DNA from: Escherichia phage Eryne
Reading direction: 5' to 3' (one strand)
Sequence record: PQ529420
DNA length: 64,000 nt
Below, in pieces: positions 11,976-12,189 of this stretch (position 1 is its first letter; each line of letters begins with the position of its first letter). Position numbers and translations under genes: made by a program. The notes beneath the pieces were generated by a model that was not told where the DNA came from, ran no database searches, and saw only the letters and a list, made by a program, of their open reading frames with translations.

Positions 11976-12189
11976 TATTTTGAAAATTTTTATTTTTATA
12001 AAAAGGGGTGTGGGTTTCATGTACGGAAATTCACCCTCTGCACAGTATATCCAGAGTAAGTAGTATTCTACACCCTGTTAATAAAGTATTTAATTTGTTT
12101 GTTGGACTATGGTATCTGATCTTTAAAAGACATACTATCTCTTAACTACTACTTATAACAGAACAGTAAAATCATTTTTATAAAAAGTA

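Follow-up and report, generated by a model that had tools for sequence, protein, structure and literature searches.

A short G-rich box in the control regions around the early genes and terminal repeat of a phi92-like Escherichia coli phage

Known systems and the layout of the locus

Short cis-acting boxes are a known general kind of feature in phage control regions, and the G-rich box considered here is of this kind. Several well-described systems offer points of comparison. In phage T7, the early sigma-70 promoters A1, A2 and A3, which are near-consensus and experimentally mapped, lie beside the left terminal repeat, and the terminal repeat itself is flanked by short repeat arrays. In phage T4, promoter-early-stem-loop (PeSL) cassettes consist of a consensus promoter followed by a stem-loop, and MotA boxes are present in dozens of middle promoters. 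Phi92-like and phAPEC8-like phages are widely isolated for therapy, yet their transcription control, origins and packaging signals are essentially unstudied, and no transcript maps or transcriptome data for this phage group were found in the literature.

The DNA analysed here, a stretch of 64,000 nucleotides (the window), comes from a phi92-like E. coli myophage of ~146 kb that belongs to the genus Justusliebigvirus of the Stephanstirmvirinae. The best database matches of the window show 97–98% identity across 2–2.5 kb, and Escherichia phage Paula is 100% identical in the region of the first copy of the box and the adjoining NADAR/YbiA-like protein. Scans of IMG/VR added only 3–5 relatives. 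The 11-mer AAAGGGGTGTG is this phage's spelling of a short G-rich box with the core GGGGTG (here GGGGTGTG), which is found at the following places:

12002..12012, + strand: S1, copy 1 of AAAGGGGTGTG, exact match
24799..24809, + strand: S2, copy 2, exact match
24876..24886, + strand: S3, copy 3, exact match
24010..24018, − strand: S4, inverted copy GGGGTGTGT, found by sequence match

The surroundings of these boxes recall each of the known systems in part. As in T7, a conserved promoter-shaped block is placed just inside a short direct terminal repeat and aimed at the first operon, and it too has an upstream tandem copy; unlike in T7, the −35 element is poor (GTGTTA), the promoter is a predicted one, and the strong consensus promoters are in an array at the right end. 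This neighbouring array of small early genes resembles the T4 PeSL cassettes, and the candidate leftmost promoter has the array's ATAGGG start context, but the G-box is not part of the array units, whose upstream sequence is A-rich and then TTGACA. A specific box in place of a good −35 element, upstream of a normal −10 element, is reminiscent of MotA-dependent promoters, although there are only 3–4 box copies here and only one has a −10 element; we know of no MotA or AsiA homologue in this phage. With its A-tract and G-rich 5′ arm, its stability and its position after an operon, S1 is similar to an intrinsic terminator or 3′ stabilising hairpin, as are other AAAGGGG...CCCCTTT hairpins in the window, but it differs in having no + strand U-tract here, whereas its Klebsiella-phage version has one. 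Like the T7 repeat arrays and cos/pac sites, the boxes are short, repeated and present on both sides of the terminal repeat; unlike them, they are few, inverted rather than arrayed, variably spaced from the cut sites and, in one case, part of a structured RNA. The analysis places the physical genome end in the window, delimits a candidate leftmost promoter, and reveals a structured RNA and a cluster of Fur-box-like palindromes.

Genome ends

The record of phi92 has annotated 343-bp direct terminal repeats (DTR-L, 1–343; DTR-R, 148270–148612). Nucleotides 251–565 of phi92 match window positions 24640–24951, and base-by-base comparison maps phi92 nucleotide 1 to 24390 and the inner end of the repeat to 24732. 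The window therefore spans the joined genome ends, with the early array as the right end of the genome. A terminal repeat of 342 bp was found independently in phage BME3 with PhageTerm (PMC12210895). The two large elements of this region are:

24390..24732, no strand: equivalent of the phi92 343-bp direct terminal repeat, present as a single copy in the circularly joined window, from alignment to phi92
13115..23516, + strand: array of small early genes with a near-consensus sigma-70 promoter before each and a 5′ stem-loop in most, from promoter and hairpin scans

S4 is located 372 bp to the left of the terminal repeat. S2 and S3 are located past the repeat, 67 bp and 144 bp inside the left end, and both are upstream of the first gene (24981). 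S1 marks the opposite border of the early region; it begins 27 nt 3′ of the stop codon of the NADAR/YbiA-like gene (11424–11975), the phi92 gp223 homologue. The first-pass annotation of the window had described the motif as bordering the array, a description that needs correction for S2 and S3, as the physical genome end (the terminal repeat) separates them from it.

The array has ~22 early promoters, each composed of A-rich upstream sequence, TTGACA, a spacer of 16–17 bp, TAnnnT and a CATAGGGCGG stem-loop; the sequence of the 5′ stem-loop is GGCGGGAAATGGTTTCCCGCC or variants of it. Both boundaries of the terminal repeat have blocks conserved across genera, GTTG/AGC..TTCTCTTAAA on the left and AAAATCGCGTTA/AGCAC on the right, where the slash marks the boundary. 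Just after the right boundary there is a short palindrome, CTCGCAAGCGAG here and CGTATACG in phAPEC8.

Occurrence of the box

The exact 11-mer occurs three times in the window, always on the + strand, and allowing one mismatch adds no more copies. The positions given earlier (about 12001, 24798 and 24876) are one base off for the first two copies, and the claim that the motif is always noncoding holds for all three. S2 and S3 share a 1.46-kb gap between the last ORF of the early array (end 23516) and the next gene (24981). Taken alone, the three-fold presence of the 11-mer is weak evidence: 99 different 11-mers reach at least three copies on one strand of the window, and three matches at ≤1 mismatch arise in 5 of 100 shuffles. 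The core is more telling. GGGGTGTG has four copies in the window against 0.45 expected, a number reached in one of 100 shuffles; the fourth is inverted (24011–24018) and extends to the 9-mer GGGGTGTGT, which is also present in S2 and S3. All four copies are in two large non-coding regions that make up ~3.5% of the window, as are six of its ten GGGGTG hexamers. The distribution of the core is thus non-random, and the four boxes, three direct and one inverted, are confined to two non-coding control regions, which lie on either side of the early-gene array and the terminal repeat. The window also has the GGGGTGG-type words GGGGTGGTGT at 12490 and GGGGGTGGCG at 12675. The word AAAGGGG is enriched as well (15 copies against 5.7 expected), mostly as the feet of terminator hairpins and as Shine-Dalgarno sites.

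The complete genome of phage ZYD (146 kb) has the 11-mer only at the homologues of S1 and S3, its S2 homologue having one G more, and 12 copies of the 7-mer GGGGTGT, with no overall enrichment. Across genera, S2 and S3 conform to GGTGT-N2-4-RAAATAW, which in the window (0.29 expected) and in ZYD matches these two sites only, bar one opposite-strand match in coding DNA. The length of the G-run is variable. Among eleven Justusliebigvirus sequences, S2 has GGGG, GGGGG (six genomes), GGGGGG (phi92), CGGGG, AGGGG or AGGGGG, and S3 has G3, G4 or G5, while the flanks of the boxes are nearly invariant. Because relatives have runs of anything between G3 and G6, the exact match of all three copies is, on this comparison, peculiar to the present genome.

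The first copy and its hairpin

S1 is invariant in 15 Justusliebigvirus sequences and is predicted to fold into a hairpin:

12004..12039, + strand: RNA hairpin with S1 as the 5′ arm, 14 pairs including three G·U, 7-nt loop AUGUACG, from folding

The hairpin has a folding energy of −16.4 kcal/mol on the + strand (z −3.4) and of −7.7 kcal/mol on the − strand (z −1.0), where it is weaker because the three G·U pairs turn into A·C mismatches. It is invariant in the 15 genomes save for U or C at 12031, which changes a G·U pair to G–C, and the sequence 3′ of it varies freely among the same genomes. The hairpin begins 29 nt past the stop codon of the preceding operon and is thus placed as the stable, GC-rich post-operon hairpin of an intrinsic terminator would be; directly after it, on the + strand, there is no U-tract and the sequence continues GCACAG. 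A T-run on its far side would serve the weaker − strand hairpin. A minus-strand terminator was rejected, since the hairpin is weak on that strand although U5 follows. The element sits between a + strand operon and a strong − strand promoter (12734–12706). It may have a bidirectional role.

The place of S1 is occupied differently in other lineages. In Klebsiella phage 05F01 there is a different hairpin that begins with its own G-box (AAGGGGGTGGGGTG) and is followed by the U-tract ACAUUUUAU; ESCO13 has the degenerate box AAAGGTGTCA; and one Phapecoctavirus-like contig has no S1 box and a different, canonical terminator instead. A tRNA-like element at S1, a 72-nt fold closed by GGGGTGT/ACACCCT, was also considered and rejected: ARAGORN and Rfam are negative, and the 3′ partner is not conserved, being GTACTCT in most relatives.

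The − strand promoter is near-consensus (TTGACA-17-TATACT, 12734–12706) and points into ~700 nt that have no ORF. This stretch (12000–12734, − strand) has a GC-rich segment conserved across genera (12655–12690), Fur-like palindromes and three AT-rich direct repeats of 67–75 nt (12174–12394). It may encode a long non-coding RNA or serve as an origin activated by transcription.

The left-end copies and a candidate leftmost promoter

Six non-Justusliebigvirus sequences were compared with the window position by position. Most non-coding DNA of the left end is poorly conserved (0.32–0.48), and one block stands out, with an identity to the window of 0.84 across 24887–24925 and of 0.35–0.36 in the flanks:

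24881..24922, + strand: 42-bp block conserved across genera, candidate core promoter of the leftmost operon, from per-position conservation
24884..24889, + strand: candidate −35 element GTGTTA, followed by a 17-bp spacer
24907..24912, + strand: candidate −10 element TAGAAT
24918..24923, + strand: candidate start context ATAGGG

The conserved block begins inside S3, which is its upstream edge; the S3 core GGGGTGT is kept in Phapecoctavirus and the AAAG part is not conserved across genera. Beyond the block, in the leader, conservation falls to 0.36 and the sequences are mosaic. The −10 element has A2 and T6 and, with the 17-bp spacer, is in register in Justusliebigvirus and in the phiWec179 lineage, and the ATAGGG that follows it is shared with the promoters of the early array. 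The −35 element matches TTGACA at three of six positions here (GTGTTA) and at four of six in the phiWec179 lineage (GTGTCA, as in Phapecoctavirus), in which GTGTCA-17-TAGAAT is the top sigma-70 candidate of the region by position weight matrix (PWM). The polymorphic G-run of S3 lies just upstream of the −35 element, so changes in its length leave the core-promoter spacing intact. In the window, however, the block has a PWM score of 7.3 against 12–15 for the array promoters, and the phAPEC8 lineage has a degraded −10 element, TGGGAT. Given this modest score and the degraded −10, the assignment of the block as the sigma-70 promoter of the leftmost operon is plausible but unproven. S2 has no −10 element in this genome and looks like a diverged upstream duplicate of S3 (GGGGTGTGT..AAA..GGTATA, 77 bp apart).

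A box at a fixed distance from a −10 element and a start is found for S3 only, with TAGAAT 20 nt downstream, and for none of S1, S2 and S4. Judged by these sequence elements, S3 alone has promoter anatomy, of a sigma-70-like and not a new type, and S1 is the arm of a predicted hairpin. The TATA-like stretch reported before each direct copy is literally there (TTTTTATAAAAA, CGCTTATGAAAA and TATATTATGTAC); the three stretches cannot be aligned as one element.

Several other candidates in this region were rejected. The best PWM match of the terminal region is a promoter candidate inside the terminal repeat (TTGGCA-17-TAGACT, 24527–24555), which is unconserved in Phapecoctavirus. Neither S2 nor S3 is the ribosome-binding site of a real gene, as no start codon is found 5–10 nt away. 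The mini-ORFs at S2 and S3 (MKRGVSK and MYKGVC), a 14-codon ORF after S1 and a 46-codon gene call in ZYD were discarded because changes in G-run length shift the frames and substitutions are mostly non-synonymous. Inspection by eye for CRP, DnaA and IHF sites revealed none that fits.

The context of S2, TTATGAAAAGGGGTGT, is similar to TTATGAAAACGGGGTGT, which forms the leader and 5′ end of a tRNA-like gene that is uncalled in ZYD. There (ZYD 41730–41850), a consensus promoter is followed by a tRNA-like sequence that is not called by ARAGORN and has the acceptor GGGGTGT..CACCCCG, the anticodon loop CTTCTAA and a long insert. In window positions 24926–24990 and the homologous loci, a mosaic breakpoint is located directly after ...ATAATTGATAGG; ZYD and muut have a Phapecoctavirus-type leader and first gene after it, and some genomes carry an 18-nt duplication, CCTATACTAATTCCTATACTAAT, at the breakpoint.

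The inverted copy and a structured RNA

S4 is present in every Justusliebigvirus sequence examined and, with lineage-specific spelling, in three other lineages, and the region around it is ~90% identical across genera. It belongs to a structured RNA:

23958..24079, − strand: conserved structured RNA of ~120 nt with three helical domains and S4 in an internal loop, from consensus fold and covariation

The consensus fold of nine sequences from four lineages has 44 pairs, with 96.5% of cells paired and eight pairs showing compensatory double changes. The covariation score is 0.202 against 0.106 in shuffles and is reached by none of 500; the signal collapses in slid-partner controls. All one-sided changes are G·U on the − strand and would be broken C·A or A·C pairs on the + strand, a pattern that fits the − strand only. 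The G-run of S4 is unpaired in the internal loop, and the GUGUA after it pairs with UACAU. Rfam gives no match at gathering score anywhere in the window, and permissive thresholds yield chance-level matches only. The minus strand thus carries a structured RNA that contains S4, is supported by covariation and is not in Rfam. A weak − strand promoter candidate, TAGCCA-18-AATAAT, is located at 24158–24129.

Changes of the box between lineages

Direct and inverted boxes have the same spelling within a lineage and different spellings between lineages:

Justusliebigvirus: direct S3 GGGGTGTGT, inverted S4 GGGGTGTGT
phiWec179 lineage: direct S3 GGGGGTGT, inverted S4 GGGGGTGT
phAPEC8 lineage: direct S3 TGGGGTGT, inverted S4 TGGGGTGT
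Klebsiella-phage lineage: direct S2 GGGG(G)TGG, inverted S4 GGGGTGG

S1 follows the trend with GGGGTGTG in Justusliebigvirus, GGGGGTGGGG in Klebsiella phage 05F01 and GGTGTCA in ESCO13. By a rough estimate for the S3/S4 pair alone, a matching change would occur by chance about once in 500 cases. The comparison covers four lineages and a short core; the GGGGTGG-type words at 12490 and 12675 blur the lineage-specific spelling in this genome, and within the genus the length of the G-run is not tracked between S3 and S4, phi92 having G5 at the former and C4 at the latter. Independent change would need several parallel substitutions. The in-step changes suggest one shared reader of the boxes, most likely a protein. 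The reading of the motif as some other protein binding site, which the first-pass annotation had offered as a second choice, is viable and gains support from these changes.

Possible functions of the boxes

The best explanation, held with a probability of about 0.4, is that the boxes are recognition sites of one trans-acting factor, most likely a protein that the phage encodes and that binds DNA or RNA. We infer both that a single factor reads them and that it is a protein. The starts or ends of transcription units near the early region and the genome end would be its places of action. At S1 its site would be in the hairpin that closes the preceding operon, at S2 and S3 it would be on the −35 edge of the leftmost promoter and immediately upstream of that edge, and at S4 it would be exposed in the loop of the structured non-coding RNA. 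Repression or insulation of early transcription is a guess at its role. As S4 is single-stranded in a − strand RNA and S1 is in a + strand G·U hairpin, each box is G-rich on the RNA-sense strand of its local transcript, a hint that it is recognised as RNA; S3 at the −35 edge would suit a DNA-binding regulator. Against a common reader, the boxes have no shared flanks, they sit in settings as different as a paired stem, a promoter edge and an RNA loop, the G-run is unconstrained in length from G3 to G6, and S1 is missing from one Phapecoctavirus lineage; moreover, Pfam brought up no candidate binding protein among the first ten left-end proteins. If one factor does read the boxes, they give a handle on the control of the first transcripts or on the processing of genome ends. 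The more far-reaching proposition, that they are cis sites of an undescribed lineage-specific factor linking the borders of the early region to the terminal repeat on both its sides, perhaps as an insulator, repressor or junction-organising system with one site on a new structured RNA, and that boxes and factor co-evolve in Stephanstirmvirinae, is unlikely.

Alternatively, the boxes would have no common function, being the foot of a terminator-type hairpin, a weak sigma-70 −35 element with its tandem duplicate and an RNA loop, which share an A-tract, a G-run and a TG word by chance and changed in step by coincidence. The number of other 11-mers with at least three copies, the enrichment of AAAGGGG for other reasons (terminators and ribosome-binding sites) and the appearance of S2 and S3 as a diverged 77-bp tandem duplication are all in keeping with this, as are the differing flanks and settings, the free G-run length and the absence of S1 in one lineage. 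It is nevertheless unlikely, as four copies of GGGGTGTG within 3.5% of the window are far from chance, and several mutations in parallel would be required for the matching S3/S4 substitutions in three lineages and for those of S1, S2 and S4 in the Klebsiella lineage. Should the boxes prove to be unrelated parts, the finding would be an ordinary one. Quite unlikely is a role as terminus-processing sites, read by the packaging machinery (a small terminase or a junction-processing factor) or by replication proteins at the concatemer junction. The boxes do lie close to the genome end, S4 at 372 bp to the left of the repeat and S2 and S3, in the opposite orientation, at 67 and 144 bp to its right; the whole terminal region is unusually conserved across genera, and the in-step changes would fit a shared DNA-binding factor of this kind as well. 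However, the distances to the repeat boundaries vary (72, 74 and 84 bp on the right, ~372 against ~305 bp on the left), as does the S2–S3 distance (77 against 59 bp), the blocks conserved at the boundaries are other sequences (GTTGAGC..TTCTCTTAAA and AAAATTCGCGTTAAGCAC), S1 is 12 kb from the genome end, and the RNA covariation at S4 argues for a function at the RNA level.

An RNA-level function could be that of a Shine-Dalgarno mimic, in which GGGGUG pairs with CACCUCC at the 16S rRNA 3′ end and copies standing alone bind the 30S subunit or a C-rich RNA partner and so stabilise or regulate transcripts; the STAB-SD-type 5′ stabilisers documented in Gram-positive bacteria are an analogy. All four boxes are G-rich on the RNA-sense strand, AAAAGGGGTGT is a real ribosome-binding site in a relative, 5 nt before ATG, no start codon is suitably spaced from S2 or S3, and the G-run of S4 is unpaired. 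This reading is likewise quite unlikely all the same, for the 16S rRNA is the same in all hosts and cannot account for the lineage-specific changes of the flanks, the S1 box is buried in a stem, and S3 would be outside the RNA of the leftmost operon if that starts at ~24918. Least supported is the first-pass proposal that the motif and its TATA-like stretch mark a class of non-sigma-70 (middle or late) promoters dependent on a phage factor. It can draw on the position of S3 at the −35 of a block with a poor hexamer (3/6), as in activator-dependent promoters such as the MotA-dependent ones of T4. Frequent copies inside coding regions, which the first-pass annotation had named as grounds for refutation, were not seen, the motif being absent from coding DNA. 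A middle or late class would be expected before many genes, yet the whole-genome search in ZYD finds no copies beyond the homologous places; in 146 kb there are these sites only, with none upstream of the replication or structural gene clusters. Moreover, a properly spaced −10 element is lacking at S1 and S4 and, in this genome, at S2, and the upstream AT-rich stretches do not align. A search for a phage sigma factor or activator among the first ten left-end proteins gave no Pfam match at the curated cutoff and one weak, sub-threshold match to a DNA ligase. The study of phage rV5 reported no homologues of the T4 late-transcription proteins gp33, gp45 and gp55; it found sigma-70-type promoters only and proposed a different putative late motif (PMC3606486). 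As a promoter class, the motif is thus extremely doubtful.

Other features of the window

The putative late motif of rV5, TggTAaAAtA, was rejected as a counterpart of the boxes, as it is at most marginally enriched and its matches are unrelated to them: one third of the ZYD genome has 14 against 8.6 expected, a number that 4 of 100 shuffles attain, and the window has 17 against 11.6 expected (8 of 100 shuffles). None of the genomes compared showed an inversion of the early region. The gene at 45290–45952 (− strand) has a ZYD homologue of 220 aa that is annotated as a recombinase-family protein. One bidirectional terminator hairpin, AAAGGGGCTTTCGCCCCTT(T), occurs in three copies (38088, 49376 and 61906) between minus-strand genes.

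Palindromes that resemble Fur boxes form a cluster (12415–12473, 23512–23585, 24463–24484 and 24661–24679). The sequence GCAAATGATAATCATTATC, located at 24463, agrees with the Fur consensus of E. coli in 17 of 19 positions, and AATGATAATNATTNTC at ≤2 mismatches has 15 copies in the window against 2.3 expected, 13 of which are in the two non-coding regions. The terminal repeat contains two of the Fur-like boxes, and the box at 24661 hardly varies across genera. This suggests iron- or Fur-dependent control, or titration.
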